IMG/VR virus record: IMGVR_UViG_3300006875_000075
Location: 1 to 33,551 of that record
DNA length: 33,551 nucleotides
Reading direction: 5' to 3' (one strand)
From: a virus
Taxonomy: Duplodnaviria > Caudoviricetes
Shown: positions 6,405 to 33,428 of the stretch, in pieces
Layout: the number at the start of each line of letters is the position of its first letter
Position numbering within the stretch: position 1 is the first letter of the stretch
Made by a program: the position numbers and the translations under genes
The notes under the pieces: model-generated
The model's database searches: none
What the model was told of the DNA's origin: nothing
What the model saw: only the letters and a program-made list of their open reading frames with translations

Positions 6405-7070
6405 TTATACCTCTTTCTGTTGCTGACGCTTATTTTCCCACCAAAGTTTTCTTGCCTCTTTCATTTTCATAAGTGTTTCCTCACTATGTTTTTTTCCAAA
6501 ATTTGGATTTTTTTCCCCTTTGTTATTTTCTCTAAACTTTTCTTTTGACTCTTCACTATGTTTTCTACCAATCCAAGGATGTGGTTGATTTTTCCAAGTT
6601 TCTTTTATTCCTTTCTTTATAAGTTCTTTTGTTTCTTGTGAATGTGTTTTACCATGAAATGGATTGTTTTCTCCTTTATAAGATCTACGATTTTTTACAT
6701 ATCCGTTATTTTCTATTTGATATTGACTAATAATTTTTTTTGTTTCCTCAGAGTGTAACTTTCCATAAAATGGATTTTCCTCACCAAATTTTTTTTCTGC
6801 ATAATAAAATCCACTTGTTTTTTGTCTTGCTTTATTTGCAAAATGTGGGTTTTTATCTACTTGATAAAATTTATGAAGATCTACTTCTGCTTGGAGTGCT
6901 TCTTCTCTTGTAGAAAAAGTTTCAAGAATTATTTTATCTGTTGGATTAAAAGTTTGGTCGGTATAAGAACCAAGATAATTATCATCTTCTGGGAGACAAT
7001 CGCAGGTTCTAGAACCTATATAACCTCTCCCAAATTCTTCATAAGAATAATAAACATAATGATTTTCCAT
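6405..7070 (-). CDS. Free-standing GIY-YIG homing endonuclease (Seg-like) with NUMOD3-type repeats
   Basis: YVY...GYIGSR, EALQAE and NKA catalytic-domain motifs; repeated NPFYGKxHSEETK. Confidence 0.88.
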   Translation of the reverse strand: MENHYVYYSYEEFGRGYIGSRTCDCLPEDDNYLGSYTDQTFNPTDKIILETFSTREEALQAEVDLHKFYQVDKNPHFANKARQKTSGFYYAEKKFGEENPFYGKLHSEETKKIISQYQIENNGYVKNRRSYKGENNPFHGKTHSQETKELIKKGIKETWKNQPHPWIGRKHSEESKEKFRENNKGEKNPNFGKKHSEETLMKMKEARKLWWENKRQQQKEV

Positions 7071-7086
7071 AACATTATTGGTTATC

Positions 7087-7113
7087 GGTGGAAGTATTTA
7101 TATTACTTCCACC
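7087..7113 (-). promoter_or_regulatory. Late promoter TATAAATA (7095-7102) inside a perfect 10-bp inverted repeat
   Basis: GGTGGAAGTA-ATATAAA-TACTTCCACC on the minus strand. Confidence 0.8.
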
Positions 7114-7119
7114 TAGGTT

Positions 7120-9532: not shown

Positions 9533-9937
9533 TCAAGGTATTGGAGAAGTTTCTAAAACCCATTCACCATTGTCTTCATCCCAACGATAGAATGAACGTG
9601 CTTCGATTTGTTCTTCTGTGAGAGTTGGTTTAGCAACTGGTGATTCCCAATCAAACGTAGAGTCATTCAGAACCCAAGATTCATATGGTTTAGGTGGAAT
9701 AAAAGCATCTAGAGTTTCGTTATAGGTATATCCAATACCAGCATAACGAACTCTAAAATTATTATTGTATGATGTTTTTACCCATCTATCTTCTAAAGAA
9801 TCGGGAATTGTTTCGTAAAGATGTTTATAAGCCCAGTCTTCATGCTCATTACCATTAATATCAGTAATCATTTCATTTGGAATGGGTGTTACATAAGTAA
9901 CAATATTATTTGAATTAATTCTTGCGTAGTGTGCCAT
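9533..9937 (-). CDS. Conserved phage protein of the MAHY/MAHF type (134 aa)
   Basis: MAHYARI...WVKTSYNNNFRVRYAGIGYTY...DAFIPPKPYESW. Paralogue of 14837-15247. Confidence 0.8.
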   Translation of the reverse strand: MAHYARINSNNIVTYVTPIPNEMITDINGNEHEDWAYKHLYETIPDSLEDRWVKTSYNNNFRVRYAGIGYTYNETLDAFIPPKPYESWVLNDSTFDWESPVAKPTLTEEQIEARSFYRWDEDNGEWVLETSPIP

Positions 9938-14209: not shown

Positions 14210-14734
14210 TTATTCAATTACATTTAGGAGAGCGTATTGTCCAAAGTATTCAAGTGCTTTTTTGTTATATGCAATTGCTGCTTCCTTTTCTGTTAAAAAA
14301 TATTCCGAATAAACGCATTTTCTTTCTACCATCAATCTAGACAACCATTTTTTTCTATTTTTTCTTCTAGAAACTCCCTTATATTTACTTGATGTTTTTC
14401 TTTTTGTCTTTTTTGCATTTCCTCCATTTTGAGAGTGCGTTGCTTTTCTAATATTAAAATTATTACCCCTGCCCGAAATATGGTCAATACAAAAATCTTG
14501 AGGATCTTCTCCTGTTTTCATGTAATATAATATTCTATGAGTTTTATAGTTTCTATCTTTATCGGTTCTTACTCCAACGTGATAGTAACCATAAGTATTA
14601 ATTCTTCCAGCAGTATCTCCTCTTTTGACAGAGTTTGATCTTGGATTTTTCCAAACAAGACCACTAGGAGATGTTTCACTAATTTCAAACAAGTGATTTA
14701 ACAACTCCAGTGGTGGGAGTGGATTGATTTTCAT
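14210..14734 (-). CDS. HNH endonuclease with C-terminal AP2-like DNA-binding domain (copy 1)
   Basis: YKTHRILY...IDHISG....FNIRKATHSQN, then SSKYKGVS...KKW...EKEAAIAYNKKALEYFG. Confidence 0.85.
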   Translation of the reverse strand: MKINPLPPLELLNHLFEISETSPSGLVWKNPRSNSVKRGDTAGRINTYGYYHVGVRTDKDRNYKTHRILYYMKTGEDPQDFCIDHISGRGNNFNIRKATHSQNGGNAKKTKRKTSSKYKGVSRRKNRKKWLSRLMVERKCVYSEYFLTEKEAAIAYNKKALEYFGQYALLNVIE

Positions 14735-14739
14735 TTTTG

Positions 14740-14767
14740 CTCTAGAACTACCGCATTATTATTTATA
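14740..14767 (-). promoter_or_regulatory. Late promoter TATAAATA (14760-14767) plus leader TGCGGTAGTTCTAGAG
   Basis: Exact late consensus. The leader is complementary to 14810-14823. Confidence 0.8.
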
Positions 14768-14768
14768 G

Positions 14769-14795
14769 TAAAAGAGGGTGCTTTAGAGGCACCCC
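14769..14795 (-). terminator. Intrinsic terminator
   Basis: GGGTGC-CTCTAAA-GCACCC followed by TCTTTT. Confidence 0.7.
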
Positions 14796-14826
14796 ATACC
14801 TGTAACGATTGCGGTAGTTTCAGGCG
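14769..14826 (-). ncRNA. Candidate small RNA 1 (stem-loop plus terminator) upstream of HNH-AP2 copy 1
   Basis: GATAAATA at 14831-14838, then CCTGAAAC-TACCGCAATC-GTTACAGG stem-loop, then terminator. No ORF. Ends are approximate. Confidence 0.5.
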
Positions 14827-14836
14827 TTATTATTTA

Positions 14837-15247
14837 TCATTCAGCAGGAGGTGCTGGTGGAGTTTCTAGAACCCATTCACCATTATCTTCATCCCAACGA
14901 TATAATGAACGTGAATCAATTTCTTCTTGGGTTAATGTTGGAGCGGGTCCAACTGGCGATTCCCAATCTGCTGTTGTTTCATTCAGAACCCAAGAAGCAA
15001 AAGGCTTGGGTGGTACAAAAGCGTCTAGTGCTTCATTGTAAGAATATCCAATACCTGCATAGCGAACTCTCATATTGTTATTGTATGAGGTCTGCTTCCA
15101 GTTAGTATCAGCACCCAGAAGTTTCTTACAGAAAGCAACTCCGATTTCTTCTACTTCGTTTCCGTTAACATCCGAAGTATCTTCGTTACTCACAATGATA
15201 ACTTGAGTAACAACGTTGTTTTCATCTAACATTGCAAAATGTGCCAA
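14837..15247 (-). CDS. Conserved phage protein of the MAHF type, probable TTG start
   Basis: AAGGAGGAAAGGAAC-TTG GCA CAT TTT GCA aligns with MAHYA of paralogue 9533-9937. The longer ORF-track start overlaps the HNH gene. Confidence 0.8.
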   Translation of the reverse strand: MAHFAMLDENNVVTQVIIVSNEDTSDVNGNEVEEIGVAFCKKLLGADTNWKQTSYNNNMRVRYAGIGYSYNEALDAFVPPKPFASWVLNETTADWESPVGPAPTLTQEEIDSRSLYRWDEDNGEWVLETPPAPPAE

Positions 15248-15263
15248 GTTCCTTTCCTCCTTA

Positions 15264-15749
15264 TTAATAAGATCCGTGGTTTGCAAAATCCTTGAAGTAT
15301 TTATTACGCATAGAAGTTGCAACTTGTTTTGCTTCTTCTAAGACGGTATAATGACCAAAACAGTGTTTTTTGCCGTTAATATGCATAGAAACTCTCCATT
15401 TATTCATAGATGAGTTCCAATAAACATTCTTCACACCCGACTTACTTGTAGAGTATATTCTACTATTCTGTCGATTTTGATAAGTATTTGCTTCTCTTAG
15501 GTTTTCTATTCGGTTGTCATAACGATCACCATTAATGTGATCTATTAACTTGGGCATATACCCTTTATGATATAAGAATATAATGCGATGGAGTTTATAG
15601 TTTTGACCATCAATACCTATTCTAACATATCTATGGTGTTTTGGGGAATAACAACCCATTTCTTTATTATCACTTCTTCGGAATAACTTTCCGTCTTCAT
15701 ACTTAAAAAGTTCCAGTGCTCTCTCCTGAGAGACCTCTAATCGTTTCAT
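15264..15749 (-). CDS. HNH endonuclease with AP2-like C-terminal domain (copy 2)
   Basis: YKLHRIIF...IDHINGDRYDNRIENLREANTYQN, then SKSGVKNVYW....KWRV...FGHY..LEEA. Confidence 0.9.
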   Translation of the reverse strand: MKRLEVSQERALELFKYEDGKLFRRSDNKEMGCYSPKHHRYVRIGIDGQNYKLHRIIFLYHKGYMPKLIDHINGDRYDNRIENLREANTYQNRQNSRIYSTSKSGVKNVYWNSSMNKWRVSMHINGKKHCFGHYTVLEEAKQVATSMRNKYFKDFANHGSY

Positions 15750-15753
15750 ACTA

Positions 15754-15781
15754 CTCTAAACAGGTGACAAATGTATTTATA
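15754..15781 (-). promoter_or_regulatory. Late promoter TATAAATA (15774-15781) plus leader TGTCACCTGTTTAGAG
   Basis: Exact late consensus. The leader is complementary to 15823-15836. Confidence 0.8.
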
Positions 15782-15783
15782 TT

Positions 15784-15804
15784 AAAAAGGAGCATTTCTG
15801 CTCC
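15784..15804 (-). terminator. Intrinsic terminator
   Basis: GGAGCA-GAAA-TGCTCC-TTTTT: GNRA loop and U-tract. Confidence 0.85.
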
Positions 15805-15860
15805 CTCCCTTTTCCTGAAGAGTGTCACCTGTTCAGGTCTTTTAGAACTTTAAAGTTCTG
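15784..15860 (-). ncRNA. Candidate small RNA 2 upstream of HNH-AP2 copy 2
   Basis: CATAAATA at 15865-15872, AGAACTTTAAAGTTCT palindrome, CCTGAA-CAGGTGACACTC-TTCAGG stem-loop, then terminator. Ends are approximate. Confidence 0.5.
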
Positions 15861-15867
15861 ATCATAT

Positions 15868-17772
15868 TTATGAAGGATATGCAATAAGAACGATGCCAGA
15901 ACCACCCAATCCACCATTAGGATCTGCTCCAGATGGTCCAGATCCTCCTCCTCCACCACCTCCAGTATTTTCAGATCCATTAATAATTATTGAACCGGGA
16001 GGAACTGGAAATCCTGGTGAACCATTTCCACCGCCACCAGATCCTCCAGTTGCTGAAGTTCCTCCATTAGATCCACCTCCACCACCACCTGCATAAATTA
16101 CTGATGATCCAGAGATAGAAGAAGGTGATCCAGGTCCACCATTTCCTGCATTAGTTGGTGTTGCATTAGTACCAGTCCCACCGGCACCCCCGCCACCACC
16201 ACCTACAGCAGCAACTCCTGGATTATGGAATCCACTTCCACCATTACTTCCTTGTGAAGGAGAAACTGGTGGAGTATTTCCAGATCCTCCTCCAGCAGGT
16301 CCACTAACTCCTGGGCTGCCGCCACCACCACCAGACCCACCTGGAGATCCGGAGTTAGGGGCATTATTATAATTGCCGCCGCCACCGCCGCCGGTAGAAG
16401 TTATGGTAGAAAATACTGAAGGATTTCCATTACCTCCCCCACCTCTAGCTCCACCAGATCCAACAGTAATTGTGTATGATCCAGGAGATGGACTTACAGG
16501 AAATGAAGTTCCTGTTCTAAATCCACCAGCACCTCCCCCACCGCCACCCAAAATCCCACCACCGCCGCCACCAGCAACAACAAGATAGTCAACAGAAGTT
16601 AGAGAAGGATTTGTAATAGTAAATGTTCCTGATGATAAAAACTGATGAATGGTCTTTCCACCACTATAACTAATCAAACCACCAGTTGCTTTTGTAGATG
16701 CAACGATTTGTCCTATTTTATACCTAACAACTACAATTCCTGAACCACCACTTCCACCACCAGAAGATCCTGCAGGGTCATCACCACCACCTCCACCGCC
16801 ACCGCCTGTAGAATAAGTTCCATTACCACCTGGAACTCCAGGAGATGGAAATCCTGGTCCACCATTTCCACCACCACCAGATCCACCAGTTCCAGAAGTT
16901 CCTGCATTTGCTGCACCTGCAGCTCCACCTCCAGCAAAATATCCACCGCCAGGATTTGGACCAGGCGTTCCTAGTGGAGATGCAGAACCAGCAATTAAAA
17001 CTTGAGAACCAACACCACCTGGACCACCATTTAAATCGCTTGGTGCTGAAGAACCAGCACCACCAGCACCACCACCACCATTTCCAGCCCGTGCTGCAGG
17101 ATTAGAGTTTGCTCCGGAATTTCCTTGCGGTGGTGATGATGGTGGAGTATTTCCAGTTCCCCCGGTTGTTCCAGCAAATGGCACAACGCCAGGATTAGAT
17201 CCTCCACCTCCTCCACCAGATCCACCAGGACTTCCACTTTGAACTGGACTTGGAAAAGCTGCTCCACCATAACCACCACCTATTGCTGTAATTACTCCAA
17301 CATATCCAGGTGCAAATACAGAATTAGAACCAGAAGAAAATCCTTTATTGTTATTTGATCCTGCTGAAGGTGGTGCAGATCCAGCCCCACCAGCCCCAAC
17401 TGTTACAACATAAGATCCAGGAGAAGTTGATACTAAAAATGCTGAACCCTCTAGTGGGTGGCCAGAAAGATTAGTTCGCAAACCACCTGCGCCACCACCT
17501 CCAGCTCTTTGACCACCTCCGCCTCCTCCACCAGCAACTACCAAATAATCTACATTAGAACCATAACCACCAATAGAACTTACAGTAAAAGTTCCCGATG
17601 AGGTAAAAATATGTGCTCTATAAATTATTCCTGGTCCCGGATCAGTATAATCACTAATGACACCACCAGTTGCGGTGAGTCCAGTACTACCAGGAGGAGA
17701 AGAAGAAGCAAGAACAGCACCAATGCCAAACTGTTTTACAATAGATGCTAGAGAAGTAACGATGGGAGCCAT
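15868..17772 (-). CDS. Glycine-rich virion/adhesin-like protein with two tandem Gly-rich domains (634 aa)
   Basis: Two copies of ATGG.I...H.F.SSGTFT...VDYLVVAGGGGGG...GGSGIV. Confidence 0.82.
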   Translation of the reverse strand: MAPIVTSLASIVKQFGIGAVLASSSPPGSTGLTATGGVISDYTDPGPGIIYRAHIFTSSGTFTVSSIGGYGSNVDYLVVAGGGGGGGQRAGGGGAGGLRTNLSGHPLEGSAFLVSTSPGSYVVTVGAGGAGSAPPSAGSNNNKGFSSGSNSVFAPGYVGVITAIGGGYGGAAFPSPVQSGSPGGSGGGGGGSNPGVVPFAGTTGGTGNTPPSSPPQGNSGANSNPAARAGNGGGGAGGAGSSAPSDLNGGPGGVGSQVLIAGSASPLGTPGPNPGGGYFAGGGAAGAANAGTSGTGGSGGGGNGGPGFPSPGVPGGNGTYSTGGGGGGGGDDPAGSSGGGSGGSGIVVVRYKIGQIVASTKATGGLISYSGGKTIHQFLSSGTFTITNPSLTSVDYLVVAGGGGGGILGGGGGGAGGFRTGTSFPVSPSPGSYTITVGSGGARGGGGNGNPSVFSTITSTGGGGGGNYNNAPNSGSPGGSGGGGGSPGVSGPAGGGSGNTPPVSPSQGSNGGSGFHNPGVAAVGGGGGGAGGTGTNATPTNAGNGGPGSPSSISGSSVIYAGGGGGGSNGGTSATGGSGGGGNGSPGFPVPPGSIIINGSENTGGGGGGGSGPSGADPNGGLGGSGIVLIAYPS

Positions 17773-17775
17773 AAA

Positions 17776-18453
17776 TCAGTACCTTCTATATCCGCCGCTT
17801 ACATTTGAGAGTATTTTATAATTAAGTGTTGTTGATGCAGAACCAGTAGTATTGATACCGGTAAAGTTAAAGACATCATAACCAGTAGTACTTCCTGTTG
17901 CTACTGTTCCGGACACATAAGCAATATGAGTTTGAACACCAACAGTTGCATTCGCACCAAAGGCAACACCATTTAGAGTAACGCTAGTGCAAGCATATGC
18001 TGTTGCTGTTTGAATAGCAATTACGGCAAATGAGATTGCCCGATTATTAAAAGAACTATCAGTTGGAATACCAGTTACATTGAGTGTAATAGGTCCTGTT
18101 GGATTTGTGCAAATCGCAACATTACCACCACCAGTATTATAAACAAGACTTACGCTATTGCCACTTACGATTGTAGTTTTATCAGCAATAGAAGAGAGTC
18201 TTAAGTCAGTAACCGTAGAAACACCAGTATTATTTACTCCAGATACAGAAATTATAGGACTTCCTGATAGACCTGTTGCTGTTCCAGTAACATTTCCAAC
18301 AAAACTGACAGAAGTAACAACACCCGTTACATTAATACCACTTGCATTGACAGTTACACTAGACCCTACAATTGCTGATGTTGCTGTTAAAATACCAGTA
18401 TTCGTATTCCTACTGTCATCAATTACAGTAGTTCCTGAGACTTTAATGGCCAT
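17776..18453 (-). CDS. Short tail-fibre/adaptor protein (225 aa)
   Basis: MAIKVSGTTVIDDSRN, AIVGSSVTVN.SGINVTGVVT repeats, C-terminal beta domain ending GGYRRY. Confidence 0.8.
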   Translation of the reverse strand: MAIKVSGTTVIDDSRNTNTGILTATSAIVGSSVTVNASGINVTGVVTSVSFVGNVTGTATGLSGSPIISVSGVNNTGVSTVTDLRLSSIADKTTIVSGNSVSLVYNTGGGNVAICTNPTGPITLNVTGIPTDSSFNNRAISFAVIAIQTATAYACTSVTLNGVAFGANATVGVQTHIAYVSGTVATGSTTGYDVFNFTGINTTGSASTTLNYKILSNVSGGYRRY

Positions 18454-31283: not shown

Positions 31284-31892
31284 TTACCACTTTTCTTCTT
31301 TCCATGTCAAGCGTTTTTTAAGTTCTTTATCAAAAACCATTAAGTATCTATGCTTCCTGCTACGATCTCTCCATTCACCCTCAACACCCTTCACAGAACC
31401 TCTAGAATGCTTTGTTCCGTCAGTATAATAAAAGTCTTTCTTAGGGTTTGTTAAACCGTAGTATTGAAAATTGCAAGCTCTGTATATAGTTCCAAGGTGG
31501 TGATTAGAGTCAGCGTAACTAAGAATAGCACGAACTGTGGCATCTTTCCTAAATCTCCTTATGCAACGACTAACGAACCAAGATGTGATATTATATTCTT
31601 CTTTTTGAATATCAGGGTGAATACAAAGTCTTGATAACTCATATATTCCTTGCTGCTGATTTCTTTCTAAACCAAACGCACCTACGGCAATTTCTGGAAC
31701 TGGGAGACCACTAAAAATGCAAGTGCCAAGACACCCGCCAATATTAAGGATATCTGTGAATGACCTTCTGTATAAACCATAATTGAAACCAGATTTAAAA
31801 TCTTTGGATTCATCTTTTAGATAATGATAGGTATAAAGAAGTTCTTTGACTTCTTCTTTACCAACTTTATCTATATAAAAATCTGATTTCAT
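31284..31892 (-). CDS. Mom-like (GNAT-fold) DNA modification protein
   Basis: HYL, YELSRL, SWFVSR, ILSYAD....GTIYRACNFQY.G motifs characteristic of the phage Mu Mom family. Confidence 0.75.
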   Translation of the reverse strand: MKSDFYIDKVGKEEVKELLYTYHYLKDESKDFKSGFNYGLYRRSFTDILNIGGCLGTCIFSGLPVPEIAVGAFGLERNQQQGIYELSRLCIHPDIQKEEYNITSWFVSRCIRRFRKDATVRAILSYADSNHHLGTIYRACNFQYYGLTNPKKDFYYTDGTKHSRGSVKGVEGEWRDRSRKHRYLMVFDKELKKRLTWKEEKW

Positions 31893-32098: not shown

Positions 32099-32169
32099 AG
32101 CCCCTAGACAGAATTGAACTGTCGTCTCCGCTTTACAAGAGCGGTGCATCACCACAATGCTTTAGAGGC
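32099..32169 (-). tRNA. tRNA-Thr(UGU), CCA not encoded
   Basis: GCCTCTA/TAGGGGC acceptor stem, GCAT/ATGC D stem, CCGCT-CTTGTAA-AGCGG anticodon arm, GACAG-TTCAATT-CTGTC T arm. Confidence 0.9.
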
Positions 32170-32578
32170 ATATTTTTTGTCGGTGGAAATCTAATCTTGC
32201 TCTATCACGCCTTTCAACTCTACCATTACCTTTATTCTTCCCTTTATATGTAGAAGTTTGAGAGTGACAGTTTGGGCAAATATAACGAAGATTTGATATA
32301 TCGTTATTATAAGGATTTCCGTCTTTATGGTCAATCTCTAATGATAGAGGTTTATTGTTCCATTCAGAAATACTACAACAAGAACATTTATATCCATAAT
32401 TTTCAGTTAGGTATTTTTTAAGTGCTTTTTTACCAGGAGGTCTTCCACCACTTAACCATTCATCAATTCTTTGCTTTTGCTGAAATTCTTGTTGACATTT
32501 GTTAGAACAATATTTACCAGTTTTGTTTGCTGGGTTATATCTAAACTCCACAGAGCAAAAATTACATTTACCTAACAT
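32162..32578 (-). CDS. HNH endonuclease with zinc-binding motifs
   Basis: CNFC, YCSNKC, CSCC, LEIDHKDGNPYNNDISNLRYICPNCH. Confidence 0.9.
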   Translation of the reverse strand: MLGKCNFCSVEFRYNPANKTGKYCSNKCQQEFQQKQRIDEWLSGGRPPGKKALKKYLTENYGYKCSCCSISEWNNKPLSLEIDHKDGNPYNNDISNLRYICPNCHSQTSTYKGKNKGNGRVERRDRARLDFHRQKICL

Positions 32579-32618
32579 AGTAGACCTTTTTATTTTATTT
32601 ATAAGGTCTACTATGTTA
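32573..32618 (-). promoter_or_regulatory. Late promoter (32596-32603) inside a perfect 16-bp inverted repeat covering the HNH RBS and ATG
   Basis: TAACATAGTAGACCTT-ATAAATAAAATAAA-AAGGTCTACTATGTTA. Confidence 0.85.
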
Positions 32619-32885
32619 ATCAGCAGGCATCATTTCTGGATTTTCCAGTTCAACTTCAAATAACATTGGATGACACTCTTCATCAATCAAATAGAATGAT
32701 GATTTATATAGGTCCTCTGGTTCGAAGCGTCTTTCTTTGTCTGCTAATTCTATGAGTTCCAAATCGTACATAAGACTATCTGGAACATCATCAAAAGTAA
32801 AAGGAACTTGATTTATAAAGTACATCAGAACCAATTGAGTTCCTCTATTGTACCAGCAATATCTTGCATCAATACGGTACTTCAT
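32616..32885 (-). CDS. Hypothetical phage protein (89 aa)
   Basis: ORF fills the gap, is preceded by a CTAAATA late-like motif at 32907-32913, and has an acidic C-terminus. Confidence 0.7.
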   Translation of the reverse strand: MKYRIDARYCWYNRGTQLVLMYFINQVPFTFDDVPDSLMYDLELIELADKERRFEPEDLYKSSFYLIDEECHPMLFEVELENPEMMPAD

Positions 32886-32926
32886 AGGATGTTTCCTACT
32901 TTTGATTATTTAGAGGAAGAACCTCA

Positions 32927-33000
32927 TACCCGTGGGCGGATTCGAACCGCCGACTGCTCGATTTTAAGTCGAGAACCTCATTCCGCTGGGTCACACGGGC
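32927..33000 (-). tRNA. tRNA with UAA anticodon (Leu), short variable loop, CCA not encoded
   Basis: GCCCGTG/CACGGGT acceptor stem, CTCGA-CTTAAAA-TCGAG anticodon arm, 5-nt variable loop CAGTC, GGCGG-TTCGAAT-CCGCC T arm. Confidence 0.88.
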
Positions 33001-33428
33001 TTATAGTTTAGATTTGGTTTTCCTCCTCTAAAAGTTTTATTTAACCTTTGACTATATTTTCCAGCACAGGATTTAGAACAAAATGGACCAACTTTTTGTT
33101 GTTTTAGATTGTTATGTCTAATGTCTCTTGCTGGTTTATAGAAAGATTTATCACATTCAGGACATACACAACAAATCATTTCTGCTCTGTTATGTACTGC
33201 TGCGTGTTTCCTTATGTTATCTACTCTACTTAAAACTTGTAAATTGTCAAGTGAATTGTTAGTAAAGTCTCCGTCTATATGGTCACAGGTTTCATCAGGC
33301 AAAAGAGGTCTACCAAGTTTTTGTTCTAAAAGATATTTTGGATAAGAAACTGTTGTTCTTTTACCATTTTCATAGAGAACAATTCTTTGTCTTCCGTCTT
33401 TTGCTGTATATGGACCATATACTTTCAT
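32991..33428 (-). CDS. HNH endonuclease
   Basis: EQKLGRPL..DETCDHIDGDFTNNSLDNLQVLSRVDN, then CPEC...FCSKSC. Confidence 0.88.
   Translation of the reverse strand: MKVYGPYTAKDGRQRIVLYENGKRTTVSYPKYLLEQKLGRPLLPDETCDHIDGDFTNNSLDNLQVLSRVDNIRKHAAVHNRAEMICCVCPECDKSFYKPARDIRHNNLKQQKVGPFCSKSCAGKYSQRLNKTFRGGKPNLNYKPV

Follow-up and report, generated by a model that had tools for sequence, protein, structure and literature searches.

Free-standing homing endonucleases of phages are controlled by promoter choice, autorepression, terminators, RNase E processing, and cis hairpins, and among the last are the T-even locks, in which a late promoter lies within a hairpin, described for I-TevI, I-TevII, I-TevIII, segB, and Aeh1 mobE (PMC2988022; here and below, statements on published work extend to the portions of the cited papers available to us). 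The DNA analyzed here, referred to as the window, is the whole stretch of 33,551 nucleotides (nt) of IMG/VR record IMGVR_UViG_3300006875_000075, from a virus of the Caudoviricetes. On its minus strand, two nuclease genes are each preceded by a cassette of ∼100 bases with the order late promoter box (P1), hairpin, terminator, second late box (P2), and leader complementary to the hairpin. The cassette is real and widespread, and it likely works in the manner of the T4 nuclease lock joined by a small RNA resembling RNA-OUT of IS10, while being a member of neither family. Its anatomy, its conservation, the covariation of its two arms, and its portability between unrelated nuclease families were observed directly.

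Like the T-even locks, the cassette accompanies homing endonuclease genes and nests a late promoter between complementary arms, and by prediction an RNA initiated upstream hides the ribosome site whereas the late transcript does not. It departs from them in its terminator between the arms, in the late box and covarying hairpin that the upstream arm has of its own, and in a pairing that is fixed to where the late mRNA is predicted to begin. Nor is the arm part of one continuous hairpin fed only by early or middle transcripts, as a late box precedes it in 63 of 63 copies. RNA-OUT is transcribed from the strand opposite its target, and its complementarity is therefore automatic. Pairing of RNA-OUT begins between its loop and the unstructured 5′ tail of RNA-IN, and changing the bases that initiate it yields orthogonal pairs (PMC4737173). 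In the cassette, too, the mRNA for a mobile element's enzyme would have its unstructured 5′ end captured by a hairpin loop. However, the cassette RNA would come from the same strand, 40 to 50 nt upstream, with complementarity kept by compensatory change, and whereas the orthogonal RNA-IN/OUT pairs were engineered, the 18 cassette alleles are natural.

In temperate phages, the c4 RNA, which is cut out of a longer transcript, regulates an antirepressor. Loop-borne sequences of the c4 antisense RNAs of bacteriophages P1 and P7 pair near a ribosome site, and their variants give heteroimmunity (PMC12197685). The cassette shares loop-borne sequences that pair near the ribosome site and variants that set specificity; unlike c4, it is smaller, is bounded by two late boxes and a terminator, serves nucleases of a lytic phage, and has no match in Rfam. 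Type I toxin-antitoxin systems, defined by a small toxic peptide that is neutralized by an antisense RNA, were considered and set aside, the regulated genes here being nucleases of 161 to 174 amino acids. RNAs named in cyanophages are CfrI, wcaG, manA, glnA, abiF, PhotoRC-II, and the glutamine riboswitch, of which CfrI of cyanophage S-PM2 is an antisense RNA beside a homing endonuclease gene and complementary to the 3′ end of psbA (PMC12197685, PMC9602691). The cassette would likewise give a cyanophage RNA next to a homing endonuclease gene, but its RNA would be a same-strand hairpin matched to the nuclease leader. Fremin et al. (2023) reported unnamed RNA candidates before GIY-YIG and HNH genes (PMC10690425); one of these, DNAVirus_1290 (92 nt, 15 freshwater sequences), could be the cassette family, a comparison made by description only. 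A literature search, with most subscription papers outside it, found no published description of the cassette. The present analysis adds the start-site register, an allele test at gp32, the independent covariation of the hairpin, a cultured phage with six cassettes, and a negative result on crosstalk.

Two cassettes in the window

Both cassettes match the preliminary description base for base: the pairings, the G-U pairs, and the difference between the copies at all seven core positions read as claimed, and folding recovered in both the terminator between the arms and a separate structure on the upstream arm. T4 late boxes are 8 base pairs (bp) long and start at −13 (−13 to −6) (PMC2988020); this rule was applied to the cyanophage start sites, so that all +1 positions given are predicted. 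The parts of the two copies and the genes that they precede are as follows.

14831-14838, minus strand: copy 1 upstream late box P1, GATAAATA; predicted +1 at 14825
14799-14825, minus strand: copy 1 address hairpin; antisense arm at 14810-14823, core ACUACCG in the loop
14775-14795, minus strand: copy 1 intrinsic-terminator-like stem (14770-14795 with the U run); predicted end of a 56-nt RNA
14760-14767, minus strand: copy 1 downstream late box P2, TATAAATA; predicted +1 at 14754
14742-14755, minus strand: copy 1 leader target, complementary to the arm, 4 nt after P2; ATG at 14734
14210-14734, minus strand: HNH nuclease P0001, 174 amino acids; phrog_99, weak HNH_3 and AP2 matches; free-standing homing endonuclease type
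15865-15872, minus strand: copy 2 upstream late box P1, CATAAATA, overlapping the stop codon of a glycine-rich gene; predicted +1 at 15859
15844-15859, minus strand: copy 2 extra 5′ hairpin, a 16-nt palindrome beginning at the predicted +1
15814-15838, minus strand: copy 2 address hairpin; antisense arm at 15823-15836, core CAGGUGA
15784-15810, minus strand: copy 2 terminator-like stem with U5; predicted end of a 76-nt RNA
15774-15781, minus strand: copy 2 downstream late box P2, TATAAATA; predicted +1 at 15768
15756-15769, minus strand: copy 2 leader target; ATG at 15749
15264-15749, minus strand: HNH nuclease P0002, 161 amino acids; HNH_3 (E value, 1.5e−13), phrog_99

Arm and leader share an uninterrupted Watson-Crick stretch of at most 10 bp in copy 1 and 11 bp in copy 2, lengths reached by 4 and 1 of 3,000 dinucleotide shuffles, respectively, and in copy 1 the predicted pairing extends into the AGAG purine stretch ahead of the ATG. 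The terminated RNAs fold as two hairpins (z = −2.8 and −4.7 for copies 1 and 2), and in the read-through RNAs a single long helix encloses the terminator (z = −4.4 and −5.2). A simple terminator scan missed the copy 2 terminator on the minus strand; on folding it is an 11-bp stem that includes the U run. The extra 5′ hairpin of copy 2 was also found in locus L429. The copy 1 hairpin matches covariance model R1, which was built with the copy 1 sequence included (E value, 4.6e−6). With 18 NATAAATA boxes, every one on the minus strand, and its structural and glycine-rich genes, the window reads as the late region of a T4-like phage. Because such boxes are common in the window, an upstream box alone means little, and it is the fixed spacing across the family that counts as evidence.

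Conservation and covariation of the cassette family

A protein-seeded locus search returned only the window's own record and one relative, so the family was sought by scanning viral and metagenome contigs for DNA patterns. This gave 82 distinct candidates, from which 2 mis-parsed duplicates and 17 sequences without the loop scaffold were dropped; the scaffold rule was post hoc, set with the candidate list in view, and none of the 17 had the upstream box. The two main scans took in at least 120 loci each, covering 42 and 9 of the 64 parts of the collection, and the scans were rich in chance matches, one of them yielding 4 new cassettes in 87 stretches. There are thus at least 63 distinct copies with 18 core alleles, a lower bound on the size of a family whose variant scaffolds were undersampled.

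In register, 57 of the 63 copies pair at 9/9 positions by Watson-Crick rules and 61 at 8/9 or better; among the 53 copies that came from scans with neither the leader nor P1 in the pattern, 49 pair 9/9 and 52 pair at least 8. Of the 62 full-length cassettes, 59 were aligned (three had insertions and were omitted), and the alignment contains a 10-pair arm-leader helix with 98% of cells paired and 164 both-side changes. No shuffle of 500 matched its pairing, its both-side changes, or its covariation score, and slid registers reached 26 to 38%. The cognate leader was the best partner for all 18 core alleles in both directions (one representative per allele), and the cognate binding total was matched by none of 100,000 permutations. 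The covariation of loop core and leader among homologues that the preliminary description proposed to look for is borne out by these figures. Pairing is strictest at the seven seed positions (Watson-Crick in 329/329 cells) and looser near the ribosome site, and one arm-leader position conserves a G-U pair (28/47 cassettes), which fits RNA pairing on the sense strand. Two cassettes, seen in one contig each, are noncognate and may be recombinants or assembly chimeras: L079:901-985 joins one allele's arm to a copy 2-type leader and a GIY-YIG-like gene, and L022:901-983 has two mismatches.

It had also been proposed that different cores allow related nucleases to coexist without crosstalk. By predicted binding energies this would be possible, but selection for distinct cores left no sign: the same core was shared in 1 of 36 within-record pairs versus 14 of 429 between-record pairs, and a 7.8-kilobase (kb) record (L480, G045) with four cassette-bearing nuclease genes has two that share one core.

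The cassette is not confined to the HNH-AP2 genes to which it was first linked, and in other cyanophage-like genomes it stands ahead of many unrelated nucleases. Among the 42 of 63 downstream open reading frames (ORFs) that were scanned, the best PHROG match was phrog_314 in 12, phrog_15526 in 10, phrog_655 in 8, phrog_99 in only 2, phrog_1035 (endonuclease VII) in 2, and four other families in 1 each, with 4 having none; no Pfam AP2 match was found among these 42 proteins. Nucleases behind the cassettes include GIY-YIG, HNH-NUMOD, endonuclease VII-like, and HNH types. The commonest core, UUGACCG, precedes proteins of at least three families (phrog_655, phrog_314/GIY-YIG, and phrog_681), and the L003 protein, 81% identical to P0002, follows a different core with a matching different leader. 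The upstream neighbors, named from their peptides by eye rather than by a scan, presumably include hsp20, gp32, a PhoH-like gene, oxygenases, and tail genes. At two insertion sites, cassette-free alleles retain a terminator resembling that of the cassette (L483:927-951 and L499:1501-1531), which suggests that a cassette can be built around a host terminator.

Rfam, which the preliminary description had left to be searched, holds no family that matches the cassette in the window or in 11 homologous loci. The whole window at gathering scores gave two tRNAs and nothing else, positions 14600 to 15950 at an E value of ≤5 gave a single chance microRNA match, and the 11 loci gave only a wcaG RNA elsewhere in L496.

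Upstream box and free hairpin

Between TAAATA of P1 and the hairpin, 57 of 63 copies have a gap of 6 nt and 3 have a gap of 5 nt; the other 3 have 10 or 27 nt. The letters of the spacer vary, and P1 was absent from the patterns of the two main scans. With the box at −13 to −6, the fixed spacing places the predicted +1 on the sixth base past the box, a purine that opens the hairpin stem; the predicted start of copy 2 instead falls on the opening base of its extra hairpin. A pyrimidine/purine step at −1/+1 occurs in 67 of 76 P1 and 73 of 76 P2 boxes versus 27 of 59 S-SRM01 boxes before ORFs, a comparison set that includes cassette boxes. The detectors behind the 76-cassette counts and the L507 case described below demand both boxes and at least 9 or at least 8 pairs, and so cannot gauge how frequent these features are. 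Near the stop codon after gp32, a box is found in 1 of 74 distinct cassette-free alleles versus 4 of 4 cassette alleles. One of 87 cassettes, that of L507, has a host terminator immediately before its P1.

At stem position 4 of the hairpin, G-C occurs 33 times, U-A 11 times, and A-U 3 times, with 2 unpaired (n = 49), and the leader partner of this position forms G-U in 29 cases, Watson-Crick pairs in 9, and mismatches in 9 (n = 47). The free hairpin thus appears to be selected on its own, covarying independently of the leader. Variant scaffolds with other stem letters keep the fold (L484, L732, L743, and three S-SRM01 copies). Hairpin pairs were counted from the ends under a filter that required 4/5 stem pairs; RNAalifold on the cassette alignment recovered only the terminator because the 3′ strand of the hairpin aligned poorly. 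A separate small RNA is likely made from P1. The earlier proposal of a separately made RNA of 55 to 75 nt fits an anatomy that predicts one of 50 to 76 nt with its own promoter; the RNA itself is an extrapolation from that anatomy.

At L476:918-968 (G002), an orphan consists of P1, an intact hairpin, and a terminator; P2, the leader, and the nuclease are lost and an oxygenase gene is next. The orphan may serve simply as a terminator, and a trans target for its arm, sought in its own 65-kb record (32% complete), was not found. L487 was considered as an inverted insertion, given a divergent gene and promoter beside P1, and was discarded as not clean because of a same-strand gene 484 nt upstream. 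Finally, 49 distinct hsp20 3′ ends (L669 to L748) carry another conserved element with a late box, a GAATATCGTCGGCGC-like word, a TTGAC-containing hairpin before a U run, and an early-type −10; Rfam gave no match to it in three loci tested.

Loop geometry and predicted binding

In the predicted fold of the terminated RNA, the arm bases facing mRNA positions +1 to +4 are unpaired with a probability of 0.9 to 1.0. Relative to P2, pairing starts at −1 in 65 of 76 cassettes, at +1 in 8, earlier in 3, and later in none. Predicted trans binding of the window copies is −13.4 and −15.2 kcal/mol for the cognate pairs and −7.3 and −4.7 kcal/mol for the crossed pairs, and the predicted unpaired probability of the leader is 0.30 and 0.20 on the read-through RNA versus 0.72 and 0.68 on the P2 mRNA. 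In nearly all copies, 2 to 4 nt separate the U run of the terminator from the P2 box. L097 and L099 have a spacing 9 to 14 nt longer and retain the pairing; at ∼1550 to 1575 of these loci, between the terminator and P2, lies an extended −10-like TGnTATAAT that could be an early nuclease promoter beyond the reach of a cis lock.

Cassettes in cultured phage S-SRM01

Synechococcus phage S-SRM01 (NC_070963.1), from a freshwater reservoir, carries six cassettes, all cognate, with late boxes at 18023, 48505, 51316, 56028, 62479, and 192488. For each of the six, in either direction, the best predicted binding is that of the cognate pair (−12.5 to −15.2 kcal/mol), and the closest cross pair reaches −9.4 kcal/mol. 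Four of the cassettes lie within 48 to 62 kb, at least two of which have small hypothetical genes around them, and early read-through would be expected across this interval. A simple cis hairpin also occurs at 126150. In the available portion of the S-SRM01 paper (PMC8557907), the words promoter and terminator are absent. No cassette was identified in S-SCSM2R by model R1.

Proposed mechanism and alternatives

From this anatomy we infer promoter activity, start and stop sites, an RNA, repression, action in trans, and a purpose, and we lean toward the following scheme. The upstream late promoter, P1, would make a short terminated hairpin RNA, predicted at 56 nt for copy 1 and 76 nt for copy 2, and the second late promoter, P2, would make the nuclease mRNA, whose first bases would be captured by the hairpin loop. 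Pairing would begin at the 5′ end of the mRNA, zip for 10 to 14 bp into the 5′ strand of the hairpin, and reach the ribosome site, so that translation of the nuclease is damped by the bound RNA. On RNA that reads through the terminator, the same two sequences would pair in cis and lock that RNA too; trans and cis action may both operate. With late transcription and genome copy number on the rise, the arrangement would probably serve to hold the nuclease dose below a ceiling or restrict it to a pulse.

Several observations weigh against this scheme. A perfect TATAAATA is present in only 5 of 28 P1 boxes versus 26 of 28 P2 boxes, and the box after hsp20 is native in 68 of 68 alleles, so that P1 appears to be imported at some sites (gp32) and to be a captured host promoter at others (hsp20). 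In 65 of 76 cassettes the base at −1 of P2 is paired, though the predicted P2 mRNA would lack it. The copy 1 read-through RNA would form a stable cis lock (−36.7 kcal/mol), and since read-through RNA folds in this way, cis pairing explains the covariation equally well. The copies are related by descent, and their counts, not being independent events, overstate the support. In the complete S-SRM01 genome, the four arms tested match no late leader but their own, in a 9-mer test that missed the leader of the 51255 arm.

The main rival, which is possible but which we doubt, is a lock that acts in cis only. The terminator would stop most upstream RNA, the arm would pair with the leader on the remaining read-through, only the P2 transcript would be translated, and the terminated RNA would be a by-product. 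Such a lock would elaborate the T4 hairpins of I-TevI, segB, and mobE, a strong precedent (PMC2988022), and it accords with the stable read-through fold that hides the leader, with the pairing P2 −1 base, with arms and targets that are always adjacent (the four S-SRM01 arms tested revealed no arm-less target), and with the four cassettes at 48 to 62 kb, where early read-through is expected. It has no need, however, for a late box that precedes the arm at a constant distance (57/63), leaves the box imported at gp32 unexplained, and must contend with the arm's own covarying hairpin, which competes with the cis duplex. In L507, moreover, host read-through is already terminated upstream of P1, and simple cis hairpins do the same job in the window (ATG 7070 and 32578) and in S-SRM01 (126150). 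Transcriptional interference, in which polymerase from P1 pauses at the terminator and occludes P2 with the pairing a back-up for read-through, would make sense of a U run that abuts the P2 box in nearly all copies. We regard it as quite improbable; the wobble-free seed facing the mRNA 5′ end and its presentation in a loop would go unexplained, and L097 and L099 keep the pairing at longer spacing.

The preliminary description had also offered the inverted repeats as DNA operators for the AP2 domain of the nuclease or, alternatively, the RNA as a guide held by the protein. I-TevI does bind DNA to repress its own late promoter (PMC2988022), and the CAGGUGA arm occurs with one protein family in 6 of 6 readable or homologous contexts, a small sample. 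Both readings, including guides of the OMEGA/HEARO type, were rejected because the cassette spans many downstream PHROG families and is tied to none, and we judge them very improbable: core UUGACCG precedes at least three families, the closely related P0002 and L003 proteins have different cores, none of the 42 proteins matched AP2, and the conserved G-U points to pairing of RNA.

Nuclease genes and neighbors in the window

In the label HNH-AP2 given earlier to the two nucleases, the AP2 part is weak. P0001 and P0002 are 30% identical and both match the phrog_99 HNH endonuclease, but the AP2 match of P0001 (E value, 3e−4) is under the Pfam cutoff and none was found for P0002 in the Pfam scan. 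A search for a relative of P0002 with a solved structure found none. Between the two nuclease genes lies a gene of the host phage.

14837-15247, minus strand: phrog_7759, function unknown; its stop codon overlaps P1 of copy 1

This gene has a paralog at 9533-9937, 59% identical over residues 1 to 133, and a cassette follows only the second of the two. Classical T4-type hairpins with TATAAATA in the loop occur on the minus strand at 7070-7115, before a NUMOD3-bearing nuclease gene (ATG 7070), and at 32570-32620, before an HNH nuclease gene (ATG 32578), so both designs coexist in this genome. Two tRNA genes (32099-32169 and 32927-33000) are interleaved with two HNH genes at 32099-33428, and a short hairpin is predicted to cover the ribosome site of the gene at 33428. 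A Mom-family DNA modification gene lies at 31284-31892 (Pfam PF25680; E value, 1.6e−22).

Implications

If the proposed scheme is true, a trans-acting small RNA with its own promoter would be a new layer of control for free-standing phage homing endonucleases, a lytic phage element having reached the IS10 solution by a different genetic route. If the cassette is a cis lock only, it would be an undescribed yet modest elaboration of the T4 design. A bolder version, which we consider unlikely, is a natural family of antisense RNAs, encoded on the same strand and addressed through their loops by at least 18 alleles, which selfish nucleases with unrelated folds carry in lytic T4-like cyanophages as a plug-in dose limiter and which, as diffusible RNAs, would also give RNA-based immunity to homing; a phage with a given address, even on an orphan arm such as that of L476, would then silence the same-address nuclease of a coinfecting phage. 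The alleles are a naturally occurring collection of short RNA-leader pairs, most of which are predicted to be orthogonal, and the six cassettes of S-SRM01 make the system directly testable in a cultured phage.

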